A DNA stretch of 64,000 bases from the NCBI GenBank assembly GCA_964505635.1, contig CAZDIP010000001.1, forward strand, positions 222,412 to 286,411, written 5' to 3'. Positions 7,215-49,528 of this stretch are shown here, in pieces. Within the stretch, counting starts at the first letter, position 1. Every line of letters begins with the position of its first letter. The stretch comes from an uncultured Candidatus Saccharibacteria bacterium. GTDB lineage: Bacteria; Patescibacteriota; Doudnabacteria; UBA920. The notes under the pieces were generated by a model. That model was not told the DNA's origin and made no database searches. It saw nothing but the letters and a program-made list of their open reading frames with translations. The position numbers were made by a program, and so were the translations under genes.

Positions 7215-7304
7215 AAAAGCATTATATCAAATATCAATAAAAACAACGATGGGCATTTTCTGTTTAAGCAGAAAATGCCCATCTGATATAAAGCTAAAAA
7301 TAGG

Positions 7305-11065: not shown

Positions 11066-12844
11066 TTATTTTTTACTTTTTATTTCTTGTAAAACTAAAC
11101 TAGAAAACTCCTCCGACCCCATCTGCCCCAAATCTTTTCCATCCTGAGTTCTAACAGAAATTAAATTCGAAGACACTTCTTTTTCCCCCACAATTATTTG
11201 GTAGGGGATTTTTTGCATTGTGGCTTCGCGGATTTTTTTGCCTATGCTTTCGTTTCTTTCGTCTATTTCTATTCTTAAATTTTCATCTACTGATAGCAAT
11301 TGCTCCCTCACTTTTTTGGCGTATTGTATTTGATTTTCAGAAATTGGCAAAATTACTAACTGAACAGGGGAGAGCCATAACGGAAAACTCCCGGAATAAT
11401 GTTCAATTAACAGACCTATAAACCTCTCCATAGAGCCATAGATTACTCTGTGGATAGCGACAGGTGTTTTTCTACTGCCGTCTTCTGATACGTACTCCAA
11501 ATTAAATCTTCTAGGCTGCTGAAAATCCAGCTGAATAGTACCCATTTGCCACTCCCGTCCAAGCGCGTCTTTCATTAAAATATCCACTTTAGGCCCGTAA
11601 AAAGCACCGTCACCTTCGGCCACAACGTATTCGCGGCCAGATTTTTCTAAAATTCCCCTTAAAGATTTTTCGGCTTTATTCCAAGTTTCAACATCGCCCA
11701 TAAAACTTTCCGGCCTGGTGCCAAGACGATAACGATACTCCATGCCAAAAATCCCATAAAATAATTTTGTAATTTCAAAAACTCTCTCATACTCTTCGGC
11801 TATCATTTCCTCAGTTATAAAAATATGAGCATCGTCCTGCCGAAATTCTCTCACTCGCAATAAACCGTTTAAGGTACCGGCACGCTCGTAACGGTGAAGC
11901 ATATCTGTATCCGATAATCGCAAAGGCAAATCTTTATAGCTTCTTAGCTTGCTGCCAAAAACTACCATGGCGTTCGGGCAGTTCATTGCCTTAACTCCGT
12001 ATTCTTCATGTTCTCCCATGTTGGCCACAAACATATCGCCCCAGTAGTGCTCAAAGTGACCCGAAGTAATGTATAAATCTTTTTTATTTAAAAGCGGGGA
12101 AACAATTTCATGATACTGCCTTTTTTTATGCTCTTTTCGCCAAAAATCAATTAACTCGTTATACAAAACCACGCCCTTTGGCAGCCAGTAAGGCATTCCG
12201 GGCGAAGTCGTATGGAACATAAATAATTCTAGCTGAGGTCCCAATTTTTTGTGATCCCTTTTTTCCGCTTCTTCAAGCATTTTTAAATAGCCTTCCAATT
12301 CCTCTTTAGTTTCAAAAGCATAGCCGTAAACGCGGGTTAGCATTTTATTTTTTTCATCGCCCCGCCAGTAAGCGCCGGCCACCTTAGCTAATTTAAAAGC
12401 ATCCGGATTTATTTCCTTACTGGGATTTTCCACGTGCCCGCCTTTGCATAAGTCTATAAAGTCAGGGGAGTTATGAAAGGTAATTTTTTTACCGCCTTGC
12501 GCAAATTCATTTATAAGTTCGGTTTTATATTCATTCCACTCAAATTCTTTTAAGGCCTCTTCTTTGGAAACTTCTTTTTTTTCAAAATGAGTCCATTTCG
12601 GAATTAATTTTTTTATTTGTTTTTCAATTTTGGGCAAATCTTTTTCGGTCAGAGTATGCCCGACTATTTCAAAATCCTGATAAAAACCATCTTGTATGGC
12701 CGGGCCAATAGCGTTTTTACTGCCAGGCCAAAGCTCCCGCACAGCCGCGGCGGTTAAATGAGCCAGGGTATGGCGAATATTATGAAGTTTTTGTTCTTTA
12801 TCCATATTCTTTACAATTAATTTTTTATGTGCTAACATTTTCAA
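11066..12844 (-). CDS. thrS: Threonine--tRNA ligase, lacking the N-terminal TGS domain
   Basis: Editing-domain HTLAHL motif is already at about residue 24. Class II catalytic core and anticodon-binding domain present. Track start is TTG at 12844; the first ATG is at 12838. Confidence 0.95.
   Translation of the reverse strand: MKMLAHKKLIVKNMDKEQKLHNIRHTLAHLTAAAVRELWPGSKNAIGPAIQDGFYQDFEIVGHTLTEKDLPKIEKQIKKLIPKWTHFEKKEVSKEEALKEFEWNEYKTELINEFAQGGKKITFHNSPDFIDLCKGGHVENPSKEINPDAFKLAKVAGAYWRGDEKNKMLTRVYGYAFETKEELEGYLKMLEEAEKRDHKKLGPQLELFMFHTTSPGMPYWLPKGVVLYNELIDFWRKEHKKRQYHEIVSPLLNKKDLYITSGHFEHYWGDMFVANMGEHEEYGVKAMNCPNAMVVFGSKLRSYKDLPLRLSDTDMLHRYERAGTLNGLLRVREFRQDDAHIFITEEMIAEEYERVFEITKLFYGIFGMEYRYRLGTRPESFMGDVETWNKAEKSLRGILEKSGREYVVAEGDGAFYGPKVDILMKDALGREWQMGTIQLDFQQPRRFNLEYVSEDGSRKTPVAIHRVIYGSMERFIGLLIEHYSGSFPLWLSPVQLVILPISENQIQYAKKVREQLLSVDENLRIEIDERNESIGKKIREATMQKIPYQIIVGEKEVSSNLISVRTQDGKDLGQMGSEEFSSLVLQEIKSKK
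12810..12838 (+). promoter_or_regulatory. Candidate plus-strand promoter firing into the structured element (antisense to the thrS start)
   Basis: TTTACA (12810-12815), 17-nt spacer, extended -10 TGcTAACAT (12830-12838). Confidence 0.35.
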
Positions 12845-13053
12845 ACAACCTACCGGAGGTCAAGCTGATTTTGCGATCATTTCTTTTATCATCCGCTGCC
12901 GAGAAACCGAACTTCAGGCAGCAAACGAAGCAAATTTCGCAAAATCGCGCAAACGCGGGCGAGCATTCTTCCTCGGAGTTCCGGGGGGTTATAAGACTCT
13001 TAAAGGTACCGCTACCTCCGGTAGGAATCTCAAAAATTCCTACTTTTTATTTT
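12845..13053 (+). ncRNA. Candidate structured RNA (unassigned family): plus-strand sRNA or, on the other strand, the thrS 5' leader
   Basis: Perfect 12-bp long-range helix 12849-12860/13014-13025. Internal 9-bp helix 12867-12875/12938-12946 and 6-bp helix 12895-12900/12917-12922. Terminator-like hairpin 13021-13043 plus T-run on the plus strand. GC-rich island. Confidence 0.4.
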
Positions 13054-13738
13054 CTAAATCTATTAACTGCTCTTGCCTGTCTTTCATATTATACTTATTT
13101 AAAAGTTCCAAAGCCTTAGGCTTTGCCTCCTGTATTGCCGCGAAAACTTCTGTTTGCGGCTTTTTTAAAATTTTCAGGCATTCTGCTTTTTTTAACAATA
13201 TGCCGGTTTCTAATATTAACCTATGCCATGGCCTTAGGCTAGGCGAATTACTTTGCCTCACTAGGCTTAAAGCGGAATTAAAATCTATCAATGAATCTTC
13301 AAATCCATTTGCCGCCTTGCTAAGGGCCAAATGACCTAAAAATTCAGCTTTGGTAAAATCTTCAACCCCTTTGTCAGCTAAAACTTGTGCATAGGCTTTT
13401 TTATGTTCTTCTAAGGCCTCTAAAAGCCGGCTTAACGAATAAAAAGCATCTCCTTTGCGCAAATGCATAACTGCCAACGCATGTCCGGTTATGTGTTGCT
13501 GCTTGCAAATTTGCAAAGCCTTGTCTATTTGTTCCAGGATTTGATGCAAATATGCAGGATTATTGGTGGCTTTAAAAAATTTTTTAAAAATGTGGACTTT
13601 ATGTCCTATTCCTTCTAAATAATTTTTGAAGTCGCGGCTTTTTAAAAATTCCTTAAGCTGTTGATTAATCAAACTTTCTGCGTCAGTAATTTTTCCAGTT
13701 TCGGAAAGTATTTCAAATTGCTCAAAAATAGAACTCAT
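13040..13738 (-). CDS. Hypothetical protein (helical)
   Basis: ORF extends to 13831, but the Met at 13738 (MSSIFEQFE) avoids the structured upstream segment. No recognisable motif. Confidence 0.4.
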   Translation of the reverse strand: MSSIFEQFEILSETGKITDAESLINQQLKEFLKSRDFKNYLEGIGHKVHIFKKFFKATNNPAYLHQILEQIDKALQICKQQHITGHALAVMHLRKGDAFYSLSRLLEALEEHKKAYAQVLADKGVEDFTKAEFLGHLALSKAANGFEDSLIDFNSALSLVRQSNSPSLRPWHRLILETGILLKKAECLKILKKPQTEVFAAIQEAKPKALELLNKYNMKDRQEQLIDLENKK

Positions 13739-14000
13739 AAAACCAAAAGACCCCGGGATTTTAACTGTAAGTCTACAGTAAAAACCCTGGGGTCTTGGAT
13801 ATAAGACCAAGACGTTTCCGTCCCAGTTCACTTAAGTGGCTCTAGAACACTTAAGTCTTTTTATGCTTTTGTCTCAAACTCCTTAGATTGGTTGTCTAAG
13901 TAGTAACGTTTGAAGAACTGAAAAAATTATAACATAAGCCAAAATAGCTGACAAGCTAAGATTTCCACAACTGGTAAAAAATATTGATTTATAAAAACTA

Positions 14001-14029
14001 TTGACATTTTATATATTATATGATATAAT
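14001..14029 (+). promoter_or_regulatory. Consensus sigma70 promoter with extended -10
   Basis: TTGACA (14001-14006), 17-nt spacer, TGaTATAAT (14021-14029). Confidence 0.7.
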
Positions 14030-14077
14030 ATGTAAATAGGCTGCTCCAAGGGCGGCCTAAAGAAAGGGGGGCTATTC

Positions 14078-14329
14078 ATGGCACATGGCCATGAAAACAA
14101 CCATGGCAACGGCCATGGGAATTCGCACGATGCCCACAAAGATGGGCACGGGCATAAAGAAGAATCAACAGCTTTTTTGGCAGTAAGCGCGTTTGTGCTT
14201 CTGCTGATTTGGCTGGTTGGCCGTTTGCCGGGCGACTGGCCAACCGTACTAAGATTATTTCTCGGCATAGGTTTGGCCGGCTTCTTTGCCACTCTATGGA
14301 AGGGAGGCGACGACCACGGCCACCACTAG
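14078..14329 (+). CDS. Small histidine-rich membrane protein (putative metal-binding)
   Basis: 13 His in the first 26 residues (MAHGHENNHGNGHGNSHDAHKDGHGH), two predicted TM helices, C-terminal DDHGHH. RBS GAAAGGGGGG lies upstream of the ATG. Confidence 0.6.
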   Translation: MAHGHENNHGNGHGNSHDAHKDGHGHKEESTAFLAVSAFVLLLIWLVGRLPGDWPTVLRLFLGIGLAGFFATLWKGGDDHGHH

Positions 14330-25484: not shown

Positions 25485-26294
25485 TTGAGTTATCAAATGC
25501 TGCCAAATCTTATATTTCTGTTTTCAATTCTGGGAATTATCCTTCTGATTTTAAGGCGCTTGCCTCAAGCCGATAAAATTAACGAGCCAGAAACAGTAAC
25601 GCCCGAAAAACTCCTGTTCGCCAAGGGTTTGCCTGCCGAAGCCATCTCTAAAACCAAGGGTGCCATAAAATTATGGCTGAAAAAAATTTGGAATTTTATT
25701 TTAGAAGCAAAAGACCTAAAGCCTGCTAACCCCGTTGGGTATAGAATCAAGCAAATTTTCCACGCAAGCCGACCGGTCAAGCAACACAAGACAGATATAA
25801 GCCTTACCCAACCACAACAACAGGCACCTAGGCAAGATGAGGCATATTTTTTTGAACTGATAAAAACCCAGCCTAAAAATTTATCCAACTATAACTTGCT
25901 TGGAAAATATTATCTGGAAAATCAAAATTTTGCCGATGGTAAAGACATATACTTATACTTAAGCAACCACGAGCCCACGAATCCTGAATACTTGGGCAGG
26001 TTAGCATACAGCTGTTACAAGCTTGGGCAGTACGAACAAGCAGCGGATTACTATTCTAAATCTTTGGCTCTTGATTCAATCCAGCCAAACCGCTATTATA
26101 ACTTGGGTATTTGCATGCAGCATTTGGACAAAAACCAGGAAGCGATTGAGCCGTTTTATAAAGCCCTAGAACTGGATCCCCAAAACCCAAAATTTATAAA
26201 TACCCTGGCTAAAGCTTATGAAAAAATGAGTGAAAACGACAAAGCAGAAAAACTTTTTTTAAAGCTCAGGCAAATACAAACAAGTGAAGAATAA
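25485..26294 (+). CDS. TPR-repeat protein with N-terminal TM anchor
   Basis: Several 34-residue TPR-like repeats in the C-terminal half (..YYNLGICMQHLDKNQEAIEPFYKALELDP..). Confidence 0.6.
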   Translation: MSYQMLPNLIFLFSILGIILLILRRLPQADKINEPETVTPEKLLFAKGLPAEAISKTKGAIKLWLKKIWNFILEAKDLKPANPVGYRIKQIFHASRPVKQHKTDISLTQPQQQAPRQDEAYFFELIKTQPKNLSNYNLLGKYYLENQNFADGKDIYLYLSNHEPTNPEYLGRLAYSCYKLGQYEQAADYYSKSLALDSIQPNRYYNLGICMQHLDKNQEAIEPFYKALELDPQNPKFINTLAKAYEKMSENDKAEKLFLKLRQIQTSEE

Positions 26295-26296
26295 AT

Positions 26297-26412
26297 AAAC
26301 CCGCCAACTTTTGGTGCCGATGTAGCTCAGCTGGTAGAGCATCTCCATGGTAAGGAGAAGGTCTCCGGTTCAATCCCGGACATCGGCTCCAGAAAATTGG
26401 CGGGTTTTTGTT
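26297..26412 (+). terminator. Terminator-like helix whose loop is a whole tRNA gene
   Basis: AAACCCGCCAA (26297-26307) pairs with TTGGCGGGTTT (26397-26407), followed by a T-run. tRNA-Thr(GGT) lies between the two arms. Confidence 0.5.
26316..26391 (+). tRNA. tRNA-Thr (anticodon GGT), CCA encoded
   Basis: Manual cloverleaf: GCCGATG/CATCGGC acceptor, GCTC/GAGC D stem, TCTCC-ATGGTAA-GGAGA anticodon arm, TCCGG-TTCAATC-CCGGA T arm. Confidence 0.9.
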
Positions 26413-26471
26413 TTTGTTGTATAATTCATTCATACGGCTCGCATGCCAAATAAACTTTAATTTTATAAAAT

Positions 26472-26990: not shown

Positions 26991-27006
26991 TCATATTACC
27001 AAAATT

Positions 27007-27039
27007 AAAATACCGCAATGCTTGCGGTATTTTAATTTT
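27007..27039. terminator. Rho-independent terminator (bidirectional)
   Basis: AAAATACCGCAA / TTGCGGTATTTT stem with a 3-nt loop and flanking A/T runs. Confidence 0.7.
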
Positions 27040-27123
27040 GGTGGGCGGTGCAGGACTCGAACCTGCGAAGCCGTAAGGCACCTGATTTACAGTCAGGTGT
27101 AATTGCCGCTATACGAACCGCCC
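27039..27123 (-). tRNA. tRNA-Tyr (anticodon GTA), class II long variable arm, CCA encoded
   Basis: Reverse complement folds as GGGCGGT/ACCGCCC acceptor, CCTGA-CTGTAAA-TCAGG anticodon arm, GCC-TTAC-GGC variable arm, GCAGG-TTCGAGT-CCTGC T arm. Confidence 0.9.
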
Positions 27124-30566: not shown

Positions 30567-30756
30567 GCCAGCTTAGCTCATCTGGTAGAGCAACGGTTTT
30601 ACCTGCCCGCCAGTCGCCGAGTGCCGATGTAGCTCAGTTGGTAGAGCAACGGTTTTGTAAACCGTAGGTCGTCGGTTCAAACCCGACCATCGGCTCCAGG
30701 CGATCGGCAGGCGGGTAAACCGTAGGTGGCCGGTTCGAGTCCGGCAGCTGGCTCCA
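30567..30756 (+). tRNA. Interrupted Thr-type tRNA (outer gene): halves 30567-30600 and about 30715-30756, separated by an insert of about 114 nt
   Basis: GCCAGCT/AGCTGGC acceptor, GCTC/GAGC D stem, ACGGT/ACCGT anticodon stem, GCCGG-TTCGAGT-CCGGC T arm, discriminator T, CCA. All stems are perfect. The anticodon loop is split after TTT. Confidence 0.6.
30623..30698 (+). tRNA. tRNA-Thr (anticodon TGT), CCA encoded, nested inside the outer Thr-type tRNA
   Basis: GCCGATG/CATCGGC acceptor, ACGGT-TTTGTAA-ACCGT anticodon arm, GTCGG-TTCAAAC-CCGAC T arm. Confidence 0.9.
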
Positions 30757-39527: not shown

Positions 39528-39563
39528 TTCGACTGGACAATTCGCGCGAATTGTCCAGTCGAA
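39528..39563. repeat. Perfect 36-bp palindrome
   Basis: TTCGACTGGACAATTCGC|GCGAATTGTCCAGTCGAA, starting 7 nt after the rarA stop. Confidence 0.9.
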
Positions 39564-45059: not shown

Positions 45060-46088
45060 ATGAAAAAATTAAAAAAGCTATTGGAAACCTTTAACTATCA
45101 ATTACCAAAACAGTTAATTGCCCAAAAACCGACTGACCCACGCGACAGCGCAAGGCTTTTGGTATATAACAGATCGCTAAATACAATACAGTTCGATACT
45201 TTTTTTAACCTGCATAAATATTTACCAAAGGGTGCGGTTTTGGTATTTAACCAAACCAGAGTAATACCGGCCCGCTTGCCTTTATACAAACAAACCGGGG
45301 GCAGGGTAGACACTCTATATATAGGTCATGATAAAAAATACCTAAAAGTTTTAGCCAACAAAAATTTACCCATTAAAACAAAACTTCACATAGCTCGCGG
45401 CCGCGAGCTATGTGAAGTGGTAAAAAAACATAAAGGCACTTATTTCCTAAAGCCGAGTTTAAAAATTTCTGATTTTAAGATTATAATTTCTAAATATGGG
45501 CTTACCCCGCTGCCGCCGTATATAAAAAACTCACCCTTAACGGAAAAACAAAGGCGTAGCGCTTACCAAACAATGTTTGCTAAATCAGGGGCGTCTGTAG
45601 CAGCCCCGACTGCCAGCCTGCACTTCACTCCCAGAGTAGTTAAAAAACTTAAACAAGCAAAAATTGACCTTAAATTCGTAAGGCTGGACGTTAATTTAGG
45701 AACTTTCGCGCCGCTTAAAGAAAGCCAAATAAAAAACAAAAAACTTCATTCAGAAAACTATTTTATAGACTTAAAAACCGCAAAATTTATTACAAAGGCA
45801 AAAAAGCAGGGACGGCCTATAATTGCGGCAGGTACGACTGTAGCCAGAACTTTGGAAACCTACACTTTAAACAAACAACTTTCCGGCTCAACAGAACTTT
45901 TCATTCGTCCTCCTTACCAATTTAAAATAGTTGACGGGCTTATAACCAATTTTCATGTACCCCAAAGCAGCTTACTAATGTTAGTCGGAGCATTAATAGG
46001 AAAAGATAAACTACTGGAAATTTATGGGTTGGCAATAAAAAATAGATTTAGATTTTTTTCTTTTGGTGATGGTATGTTAATAATTTAA
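45060..46088 (+). CDS. queA: S-adenosylmethionine:tRNA ribosyltransferase-isomerase
   Basis: YQLPKQLIAQKPTDPRDSARLLVY start and C-terminal FFSFGDGML. Confidence 0.9.
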   Translation: MKKLKKLLETFNYQLPKQLIAQKPTDPRDSARLLVYNRSLNTIQFDTFFNLHKYLPKGAVLVFNQTRVIPARLPLYKQTGGRVDTLYIGHDKKYLKVLANKNLPIKTKLHIARGRELCEVVKKHKGTYFLKPSLKISDFKIIISKYGLTPLPPYIKNSPLTEKQRRSAYQTMFAKSGASVAAPTASLHFTPRVVKKLKQAKIDLKFVRLDVNLGTFAPLKESQIKNKKLHSENYFIDLKTAKFITKAKKQGRPIIAAGTTVARTLETYTLNKQLSGSTELFIRPPYQFKIVDGLITNFHVPQSSLLMLVGALIGKDKLLEIYGLAIKNRFRFFSFGDGMLII

Positions 46089-49305: not shown

Positions 49306-49528
49306 ATGAATCGCTGATTACTCACTGATAGCAAAGCGGATGTTACGATAACTTAACACAACCCTGTCATTCCGGAATTTTTATATTGTTATTAAAAATG
49401 TCCGAAATCTATTTAATACTCGGTGCTGGATCCCGGACATTTTTTGCTACGATAAATCTCAATTCAAAAAATTCCGATATACCAGAGTGTTTATTCATTA
49501 CTCTCTAACTATAACAAAAATCCTGATA

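Follow-up and report, generated by a model that had tools for sequence, protein, structure and literature searches.

The 177-nt structure at 12849-13025, on the minus strand just upstream of the threonyl-tRNA synthetase gene thrS in the window analyzed here (a stretch of 64,000 nt), is, we hold with moderate confidence, an orphan insert: an ORF-less element closed by an inverted repeat and lodged in a permissive part of the thrS transcription unit. Its classification as a passenger insert is drawn from analogy of place and architecture and is the most likely one. We do not regard it as a switch responding to a ligand, tRNA, or ThrRS. The predicted control RNA of thrS is instead an attenuator-type leader at 13919→13745, also on the minus strand, about 0.9 kb further upstream. 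The original prediction had read the element either as a small RNA on the plus strand or as part of the thrS 5′ leader on the minus strand, and the element does lie within the 5′ UTR of thrS on that strand.

The thrS gene (11066..12805, minus strand) encodes a ThrRS of 579 aa that begins at ATG 12805 and not, as had been proposed, at an ATG at 12838: MDKEQ/MNNEE is where the protein begins in the database entry (579 aa, 100% identical) and in all close homologs. With the start at 12805, the element does not abut it as first described; its 12-bp helix stops 43 nt upstream and thus covers no ribosome-binding site. In the predicted folds no helix reaches past 12837 toward the gene, and the last 31 nt before the ATG (12806-12836) are unpaired.

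The element itself is largely as first described. The perfect 12-bp helix CCTACCGGAGGT/ACCTCCGGTAGG (12849-12860/13014-13025, enclosing 153 nt) is present, with a predicted pair probability of ~0.99, and the inverted repeat exceeds chance: no perfect inverted repeat in 500 dinucleotide-preserving shuffles of 12806-13045 exceeded 11 bp, so none reached 12 bp. The whole region also folds far better than shuffles on either strand (z = -4.5 on plus and -4.0 on minus; 0/200 shuffles as good). Its GC content, 0.51 as compared with ~0.39 in the flanks, is elevated as claimed, but the excess is only modest. Within the closing helix lies a long irregular hairpin (12867..12946, minus strand) that exists as proposed, with the apical helix GCTGCC/GGCAGC (12895-12900/12917-12922), except that its base (12867-12876/12937-12946) is a perfect 10 bp instead of the nine given. 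This hairpin reaches -32.4 kcal/mol on the minus strand versus -24.5 on the plus strand, and its inner helix gains three G-U pairs on minus. The second, weaker domain (12947..13013) leans the other way (-16.5 on plus versus -12.4 on minus); it includes the hairpin CCTCGG-AGTT-CCGGGG, found where it had been reported (12971-12986) and favored on the plus strand by three G-U pairs. One domain favors minus and the other plus, and neither folding energy nor G-U asymmetry settles the strand. In the minus-strand minimum-free-energy fold, the closing stem is extended beyond a 3×3 internal loop by nine pairs, three of them G-U, between 13029..13037 (5′ strand) and 12837..12845 (3′ strand), for a total of ~21 bp; this extension is specific to the minus strand. 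A small hairpin, GTAGGAAT-7-ATTCCTAC at 13021..13043, followed on the plus strand by TTTTTATTTT, was also found as described; it has GTAGG in common with the long helix and overlaps the stop codon (13040-13042) of the upstream ORF232. A 25-codon minus-strand ORF, its ATG preceded by GAGGAAGA, lies within the element, and an 11-codon ORF lies within the corresponding insert of the closest relative (L081); neither is conserved, and both are taken as chance. The stretch 12570-14264 recurs at 100% identity in an independent assembly, the Logan assembly of run SRR16481187 (L104), which rules out an assembly artifact.

The conserved RNA of this region lies elsewhere. A promoter with 11/12 matches (TTGTCA-17-TGtTATAAT, 13926..13954, minus strand) precedes a leader comprising stem P1, stem P1b with the loop ACCAA (13892-13888), stem P2 with the loop TTCTAGAG (within 13919-13745), the motif CTGGGACGGAAACGTC (13826-13811), and a terminator (about 13796-13739), all on the minus strand. 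The stems covary, and in the loop ACCA, which holds the Thr codon ACC, is invariant. All relatives in this Patescibacteria clade have the leader ahead of thrS, and its motif is found upstream of the gene in 18/18 informative loci, at distances of 98 to 1021 nt. Rfam has no entry for the leader, and its T-box model does not match it; scans of the leader region and nine related loci returned chance hairpin matches only. Its ACC loop and terminator could point to sensing of tRNA-Thr, and this T-box-like logic is a property of the leader and not of the element. The latter does resemble T-box RNAs (RF00230) and the Escherichia coli thrS operator in its location upstream of an aminoacyl-tRNA synthetase gene and in its competing helices, but unlike them it has no covariance-model match, T-box sequence, specifier, or anticodon-like loop, leaves the ribosome-binding site untouched, and is not conserved. 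Whereas an E. coli-type operator presents mimics of the tRNA-Thr anticodon arm by the ribosome-binding site, the element lies 32-43 nt from the start, and among its minus-strand hairpin loops (UUCGG, GGAACU, and others) there is no NGU-A anticodon-like heptaloop.

Between the leader terminator and the element lies ORF232 (13040..13738, minus strand), an orphan co-oriented with thrS. A search among 5.8 billion proteins found only ORF232 itself, Pfam and NCBIfam assign it to no family, and its single-sequence AlphaFold model is all-helical at a pLDDT of 52, too poor for a fold search.

Comparison with related loci shows that the whole stretch from the leader terminator to the thrS ATG, which we call the slot, is variable. 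Its length ranges from 38 nt to about 0.9 kb, and in four relatives (L086, L091, L088, and L099) it is almost or wholly empty. A perfect inverted repeat of at least 11 bp bounds the slot insert in 8 of the 21 distinct loci, the window included (12 bp in the window, 15 in L001, 18 in L083, 11 in L093, 12 in L096, 18 in L097, and 12 each in L100 and L101), and three further loci (L081, L082, and L084) have inverted repeats of 8-9 bp. The inserts of different relatives, with bounding repeats spanning 8-18 bp, are unrelated in sequence. Five of them carry ORFs typical of intervening sequences (IVSs), as identified with Pfam and NCBIfam: GxxExxY/PDDEXK_3 in L001, L097, and L100, the four-helix-bundle protein of 23S rRNA IVSs in L093, and GIY-YIG in L096. 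All five, like ORF232, are co-oriented with thrS. The ORF-less inserts in L083, L101, and L081 enclose 97-134 nt and resemble the element of the window. The distance from the 3′ arm of the insert to the ATG varies among loci from 2 to 43 nt, which argues for tolerance of insertion and does not amount to demonstrated targeting. The window departs from the ORF-bearing loci in that the relatives' repeats enclose their ORFs, whereas its own repeat leaves ORF232 outside; tblastn found none of the cassette protein families encoded in the window, and the element has neither termini nor sequence in common with the ORF-bearing cassettes.

The element has no detectable kin among the sequences searched. 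Rfam at gathering thresholds reported four tRNAs and nothing else in the whole window, and at E≤10 over 12700-13200, both strands, it gave a single chance lncRNA match outside the element, bearing out the initial remark that no known family could be assigned. A nested tRNA, a candidate spliced or split tRNA-Thr(GGU), lies at 30567-30756. The suggested T-box model RF00230 produced no match either in the window at its gathering score or in 12700-13200 on both strands at E≤10. Identities as 6S RNA or SRP RNA were dropped because neither matched in Rfam, and a retron msr/msd because no reverse transcriptase lies nearby. No homolog of the element occurs in 80 + 23 thrS loci, including that of a relative whose ThrRS is 87% identical: nhmmer with the element against the 80 loci gave no match, and a blastn search of the closest relatives with the dnaE-thrS gap returned the leader as the sole match, not the element. 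A MAFFT alignment of the element with the L081 and L083 inserts yielded no credible homology. Smith-Waterman comparisons with the contents of 10 slots, controlled by shuffles, gave nothing significant, the best score (L082, p = 0.017) being lost after correction for ten tests. An exact 21-mer from the element had no match in viral contigs, nor did blastn of the element match phage genomes. The original prediction had named a lack of conservation or covariation of the 12-bp helix in relatives as an observation that would refute it; across ~100 thrS loci, the locus with the 87%-identical ThrRS among them, neither the helix nor any other part of the element is conserved. Considered by itself, the element is an orphan structure without sign of conserved function.

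The closest parallel is with IVSs, inserts with complementary termini whose stem is cut by RNase III and whose ORFs are under reductive evolution; in Coxiella, where cleavage by RNase III was assayed in vitro, the IVS stem is 28 bp long (PMC4990558). Like the IVSs in the 23S rRNA of Salmonella, Leptospira, Coxiella, and others, the element is a lineage-patchy insert at one place of a transcribed RNA; the near-empty slots of four relatives and the different contents of the others mark it as an insertion. As in IVSs, which come with or without an ORF, its termini are complementary, the 12-bp repeat forming the stem. Furthermore, the slot cassettes of its relatives share the proteins of IVSs: the four-helix bundle, GxxExxY (PD-(D/E)XK), and GIY-YIG. 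There are also differences. IVSs reside in a helix of 23S or 16S rRNA, whereas the element sits in an mRNA leader or intergenic spacer, with ORF232 on one side and thrS on the other; its stem of 12 bp (~21 bp with the extension) is shorter than those of characterized IVSs, such as the one in Coxiella; an ORF of IVS type (S23p four-helix bundle or GxxExxY) is present in the relatives' inserts but in neither the element nor the window; and RNase III excision, a trait of IVSs, is putative for the element.

We posit that minus-strand transcription begins at the strong promoter at 13954-13926 and first crosses the Thr-codon-bearing attenuator leader (13919-13745), where the terminator would take the regulatory decision. 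Read-through would then cover ORF232, the element, and thrS, and because regulation would already be complete upstream, the sequence of the slot would be unconstrained. On this transcript the element would form a closed domain that loops out ~150 nt and leaves the ribosome-binding region of thrS free. Its likeliest fate, by analogy with rRNA IVSs, would be simple tolerance of the stem or its cleavage by RNase III, which would detach the thrS message from the leader and ORF232 in front of it. A broader proposal, which we offer tentatively and consider possible rather than probable, is that the thrS 5′ region is an undescribed two-part system in which a non-T-box ACC-loop leader is joined to an mRNA stretch repeatedly colonized by selfish IVS-type cassettes, the element being an ORF-less member that is excised or clipped by RNase III.

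Among the alternatives, a cis-acting mRNA domain whose architecture is kept without its sequence has the most in its favor but is still unlikely. It supposes that most clade members hold a closed stem-loop just upstream of the thrS ribosome-binding site, which could be (i) an RNase III processing site, (ii) a 5′ stabilizer of the processed thrS message, or (iii) an insulator against pairing of the leader or ORF232 with the start region. The element does recall the RNase III processing stems of polycistronic bacterial mRNAs: it is flanked by two cistrons, ORF232 and thrS, and its long-range stem loops out the RNA in between. A stem of the element's length is about as short as RNase III substrates get, and the G-U extension available only on the minus strand takes it to ~21 bp. 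Where the slot of a relative exceeds ~60 nt, it contains in most cases a stable stem-loop or inverted-repeat-closed domain. In the closest relative (L081, ThrRS 87%), a 115-nt domain of -52.9 kcal/mol is closed by a 9-bp helix that, like that of the window, ends 43 nt before the ATG, and the arm cores are similar (CTGGAGG/CCTCCAG versus CCGGAGG/CCTCCGG). Yet the two slots align no better than shuffles (p = 0.24), and the domains vary in size between 18 nt and 480 nt and in part contain ORFs, unlike what one conserved function would predict. The four relatives with near-empty slots have no such domain, which is therefore dispensable.

A stand-alone plus-strand sRNA of ~205 nt, antisense to the thrS 5′ UTR, is a decidedly weak prospect. 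It would start near 12845 from TTTACA-17-TGcTAACAT and end near 13050 at the hairpin 13021-13043 and its T-run. Promoter-like and terminator-like sites are indeed present on the plus strand, the plus-strand fold has the z of -4.5 given above, and the G-U pairs of the hairpin at 12971-12986 are available on that strand only. But the promoter, although the site exists, matches at 9/12 positions, and such sites occur at chance frequency (3 found, 2.1 expected in shuffles). The hairpin put forward as a canonical terminator has a plus-strand pair probability of 0.01-0.02, and forcing it costs +2.9 kcal/mol; it is outcompeted by the 12-bp helix, which forms first and sequesters its 5′ arm. The long hairpin gains 8 kcal/mol when folded on the minus strand, the insert ORFs of relatives at this position all run in the thrS sense orientation, and no homolog of such an sRNA was found anywhere searched or matched in Rfam. 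The positive support for this reading is limited to consensus matches.

A MITE-like non-autonomous transposon, in which the 12-bp repeats would be terminal repeats bound by a transposase, is very improbable. The element is small, intergenic, without an ORF, and bounded by perfect inverted repeats, as are MITEs and REP-type palindromic elements, and close relatives have no element at the same place. Unlike these, however, it has no target-site duplication (the flanks, ...AAACAAC / element / AATCTCA..., contain no common direct repeat). Neither arm nor the element has a second copy in the 64-kb window, no transposase lies nearby, and no related copies or family members were found in ~1.5 Mb of related loci. 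Its internal secondary structure also goes far beyond what the simple terminal repeats of such elements need. Least credible of all is a minus-strand switch, operator, or riboswitch whose long-range helix would by turns mask and expose the thrS ribosome-binding site: a location in the thrS 5′ UTR and two mutually exclusive helices, the alternative just +2.9 kcal/mol away in the plus-strand computation, speak for it, but the sequestration of a Shine-Dalgarno site was built on the wrong start codon, the region 12806-12836 is predicted to be open, the element is not conserved even at a ThrRS identity of 87%, neither T-box nor any other Rfam model matches at E≤10, no hairpin loop resembles the tRNA-Thr anticodon loop in sequence or fold, and thrS is already served by the separate, conserved, covarying attenuator upstream.

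The riboswitch and sRNA readings of the element can be set aside as improbable, and the surrounding context matters more than the element. For annotation, the case counsels caution: next to an aminoacyl-tRNA synthetase gene, even strong local folding combined with a long perfect helix is insufficient for a riboswitch call. For this lineage of the candidate phyla radiation, thrS control is predicted to lie in a covarying leader that presents a Thr codon in a loop and has no Rfam entry. Cassettes of the type known from 23S rRNA IVSs also occupy an mRNA leader, in every case in the orientation of the host gene, and in doing so they bear on the long-open question of what IVSs are and how they spread. 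If true, the proposed two-part organization would be the first instance of IVS biology on a messenger RNA leader instead of rRNA.

The element at 12849-13025 on the minus strand (177 nt) is best read as an insert bounded by a palindrome in the non-coding, presumably transcribed 5′ leader of thrS; inserts of this kind are known, and any function would be putative. Its 12-nt arms, CCTACCGGAGGT (12849-12860) and ACCTCCGGTAGG (13014-13025), are perfect complements enclosing 153 nt, and none of 500 dinucleotide-preserving shuffles of 12806-13045 contains a perfect inverted repeat longer than 11, versus 12 in the element. The long hairpin, the hairpin at 12971-12986, and the hairpin at 13021-13043 followed by a T-run all lie where the original prediction placed them; the long hairpin has a base of 10 bp (12867-12876/12937-12946) and an apical helix GCTGCC/GGCAGC. 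The description as GC-rich holds in part, G+C being raised but only moderately (0.51 versus ~0.39). The fold is far better than that of shuffles on both strands (z = -4.5 plus, -4.0 minus), and a Logan assembly of sequencing run SRR16481187 matches the 1,695 nt around and including the element at 100% identity, which excludes a palindromic assembly artefact. Across a 3x3 loop, 9 further pairs (13037-13029 with 12845-12837) can lengthen the closing stem to ~21 bp; this extension is confined to the minus strand because 3 of its 9 pairs are G-U. The energy of the long hairpin favors the minus strand (-32.4 versus -24.5 kcal/mol), that of the second domain favors the plus strand (-16.5 versus -12.4), and the full closed element reaches -71.4 on the minus and -66.9 on the plus strand; folding energies do not settle which strand is transcribed.

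The genome belongs to the Patescibacteria (candidate phyla radiation [CPR]), and its best ThrRS matches carry the annotation “Patescibacteria group” or “Candidatus Doudnabacteria.” Relatives keep the gene order, in which thrS follows dnaE on the minus strand and map, adk, and adk converge with it from the plus strand. The start codon of thrS is the ATG at 12805 (MDKEQKLHNIRH...): a 579-aa database protein is identical (100%) from end to end, and homologues 576-585 aa long begin at the equivalent residue, so that the ATG at 12838, previously taken as the start, is an in-frame upstream codon. This places the end of the 12-bp helix 43 nt upstream of the true start, and the 31 nt directly 5′ of the ATG are unpaired in predicted folds.

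The conserved part of the leader lies upstream of the element, as minus-strand RNA running from 13919 to 13745. It is preceded by a promoter, TTGTCA-17-TGtTATAAT (13954-13926, minus, 11/12 matches), and comprises P1, with the stem UUCAAAC/GUUUGAA; an inner stem, P1b, whose loop invariably contains ACCA (13892-13888); P2, a stem capped by the invariant loop UUCUAGAG; an optional hairpin that some relatives have and the window lacks; an invariant motif, CTGGGACGGAAACGTC (13826-13811); and a terminator, a long hairpin followed by a U-run. An exact-pattern scan of a metagenome collection for the leader motif gave 15 loci, to which the loci with the closest ThrRS were added; in this set the motif stands 5′ of thrS in 18/18 informative loci, at ThrRS identities of 44-87%. 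The sole exception, in L090, is a chance match within a high-GC coding region. Compensatory changes occur in P1, P1b, and the terminator (RNAalifold), and all 9 pairs of P2 have changed on both sides; P2 cells are paired in 89.7% of cases versus 52.9% in shuffles (0/500 as high) and 32-48% with the partner strand slid. A P1-P2 covariance model recovers six held-out loci (L085, L092, L098, L100, L101, and L102), each 5′ of thrS, and has no match in a further 79 thrS loci, drawn from different CPR lineages and from other phyla. Together these observations support a real, thrS-linked RNA.

Neither the window nor nine relatives yielded an Rfam family match for this leader, and a full-text literature search found no paper tying T-box riboswitches to Patescibacteria. 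The ACC of the P1b loop is a Thr codon, followed in the window by A, and the window encodes tRNA-Thr(GGU) with discriminator U73. We infer that the leader follows a T-box-like logic and is a candidate new tRNA-Thr-sensing attenuator, in which the tRNA-Thr(GGU) anticodon could base-pair with the ACC loop, with the terminator further downstream as the putative expression platform. Just 5′ of the -35 hexamer of the leader promoter, nearly all relatives carry a conserved box, TGTGGAAA(AC) (13962-13969, minus), which may serve as an UP element or bind a protein. A perfect 12/12 sigma-70-type promoter (TTGACA-17-TATAAT with TG; 14001-14029, plus) diverges from that of the leader and faces an ORF of 83 codons that is rich in His and has a hydrophobic tail (14078-14329, plus; MAHGHENNHGNGHG...); an overlapping 121-codon minus-strand ORF (13927-14292) is probably spurious.

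The element itself is conserved in none of the relatives searched, an outcome that the original prediction had named as refuting it. Across the whole window, Rfam 15 at gathering thresholds reports four tRNAs only, and at E<=10 nothing matches in or overlaps the element; T-box, 6S RNA, SRP RNA, and the other curated families are therefore not represented, in keeping with the earlier failure to assign it by eye. No homologue was found by nhmmer in 80 thrS loci (one genome per species). When the whole dnaE-thrS gap was compared by blastn with the closest relatives by ThrRS identity (L081, 87%; L082 and L083, ~75%; L001, 71%), the conserved block fell at 13782-13978, outside the element. Pairwise local alignment with the equivalent region of 10 relatives revealed no convincing similarity: the best case, L082 (z = 2.5, p = 0.017), fails correction for 10 tests, and L081, the closest relative, gives p = 0.24.

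A slot of variable content separates the leader terminator from the thrS ATG, the distance from leader motif to ATG ranging from 98 to 1021 nt. In L086, L091, L088, and L099 it is empty or nearly so, with the terminator U-run almost directly 5′ of the ATG. The contents of the other slots are unrelated to one another, and each is enclosed by a perfect inverted repeat of 18 bp (L083 and L097), 15 bp (L001), 12 bp (L100, L101, the window, and L096, where it is extendable to ~40-nt arms), 11 bp (L093), or fewer (9 bp in L081, 8 bp in L082 and L084). Five inserts contain an ORF, encoding GxxExxY/PDDEXK_3 proteins in L001 (3520-3990), L097 (minus), and L100 (995-1500), the four-helix-bundle protein 23S_rRNA_IVP in L093 (minus), and GIY-YIG in L096 (minus); inserts lacking one enclose 134 (L083), 86 (L101), 97 (L081), and, in the window, 153 nt. 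In the window, the minus-strand order is ORF232, the 177-nt element, 43 nt, and thrS. ORF232 (13738-13040, minus; 232 aa, all-helical) begins directly after the leader terminator U-run, at the site where thrS itself begins in empty-slot relatives, and its stop codon is overlapped by the 13021-13043 hairpin. It has no Pfam or NCBIfam match, finds only itself among 5.8 billion proteins, and has an AlphaFold model of pLDDT 52. All five insert ORFs and ORF232 are co-oriented with thrS, and the 3′ arm of the inserts ends anywhere from 2 to 43 nt from the ATG; this resembles a co-transcribed region permissive to insertion more than a homing site at a fixed position.

Palindromic termini of the type GTCATT(G/C)CGAGG...CCTCG(C/G)AATGAC recur in the slots of L084, L088/L095, L091, L096, and L101, with GIY-YIG cargo in L096, without cargo in L101 and L084, and as a bare hairpin in L088 (TGTCATTCCGGGATGACA), which suggests one palindromic element family with and without cargo; the window has a weak look-alike, ACCCTGTCATTCCGGAATT, at 49361-49382. 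It also contains perfect or near-perfect 18-bp loopless palindromes (7248-7283, 39528-39563, and 45383-45418) and, adjoining tRNA-Tyr, a palindrome with a 21-bp stem and a 3-nt loop (26998-27042). A complete tRNA-Thr(TGT) (30623-30698, plus), together with the imperfectly complementary arms on either side of it, makes up a 114-nt insert (30600-30713) between nt 33 and 34 of an otherwise perfect tRNA-Thr(GGT) (30567-30756, plus), so that one tRNA gene sits within another's anticodon loop; ARAGORN calls the joined 76-nt sequence tRNA-Thr(ggt). A second, uninterrupted tRNA-Thr(GGT) (26316-26391) lies between the arms of a 22-nt imperfect inverted repeat, AATAAATAAACCCGCCAACTTT/AAAATTGGCGGGTTTTTGTTTT (26290-26414), which could be a processing stem.

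We give about an even chance to the element being an orphan, ORF-less, inverted-repeat-closed insert of an intervening-sequence-like class carried in the thrS mRNA. The GxxExxY/PDDEXK_3, 23S_rRNA_IVP, and GIY-YIG families are those known from 23S rRNA intervening sequences (IVSs). The four-helix-bundle S23p, the bordering complementary termini, and the excision of IVSs by RNase III are documented (PMC4990558), and the closing stem of the element may likewise be an RNase III site. Such an insert would be tolerated, we propose, because the regulatory decision on thrS has by then been taken, at the terminator upstream. A functional processing or insulating domain of conserved architecture is unlikely: the closed domain of L081 is a different one (115 nt), likewise ending 43 nt before the ATG, with arms resembling those of the window in their GGAGG/CCTCC cores, but four loci lack any such domain. 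The stand-alone plus-strand sRNA of the original prediction is quite improbable, since its promoter-like site matches at chance level and the hairpin of its supposed canonical terminator is outcompeted (pair probability 0.01-0.02; +2.9 kcal/mol if forced). A MITE is very doubtful, there being no target-site duplication and no second copy within the 64-kb window. The proposed switch sequestering the thrS Shine-Dalgarno sequence, built on the wrong start codon and on an element without conservation, scarcely merits belief.

Beyond the element itself, the inserts in relatives point to recurrent colonization of an mRNA leader by cassettes of the rRNA-intervening-sequence type, and the conserved RNA that precedes them is a covarying, hitherto undescribed leader of thrS whose loop presents a Thr codon.
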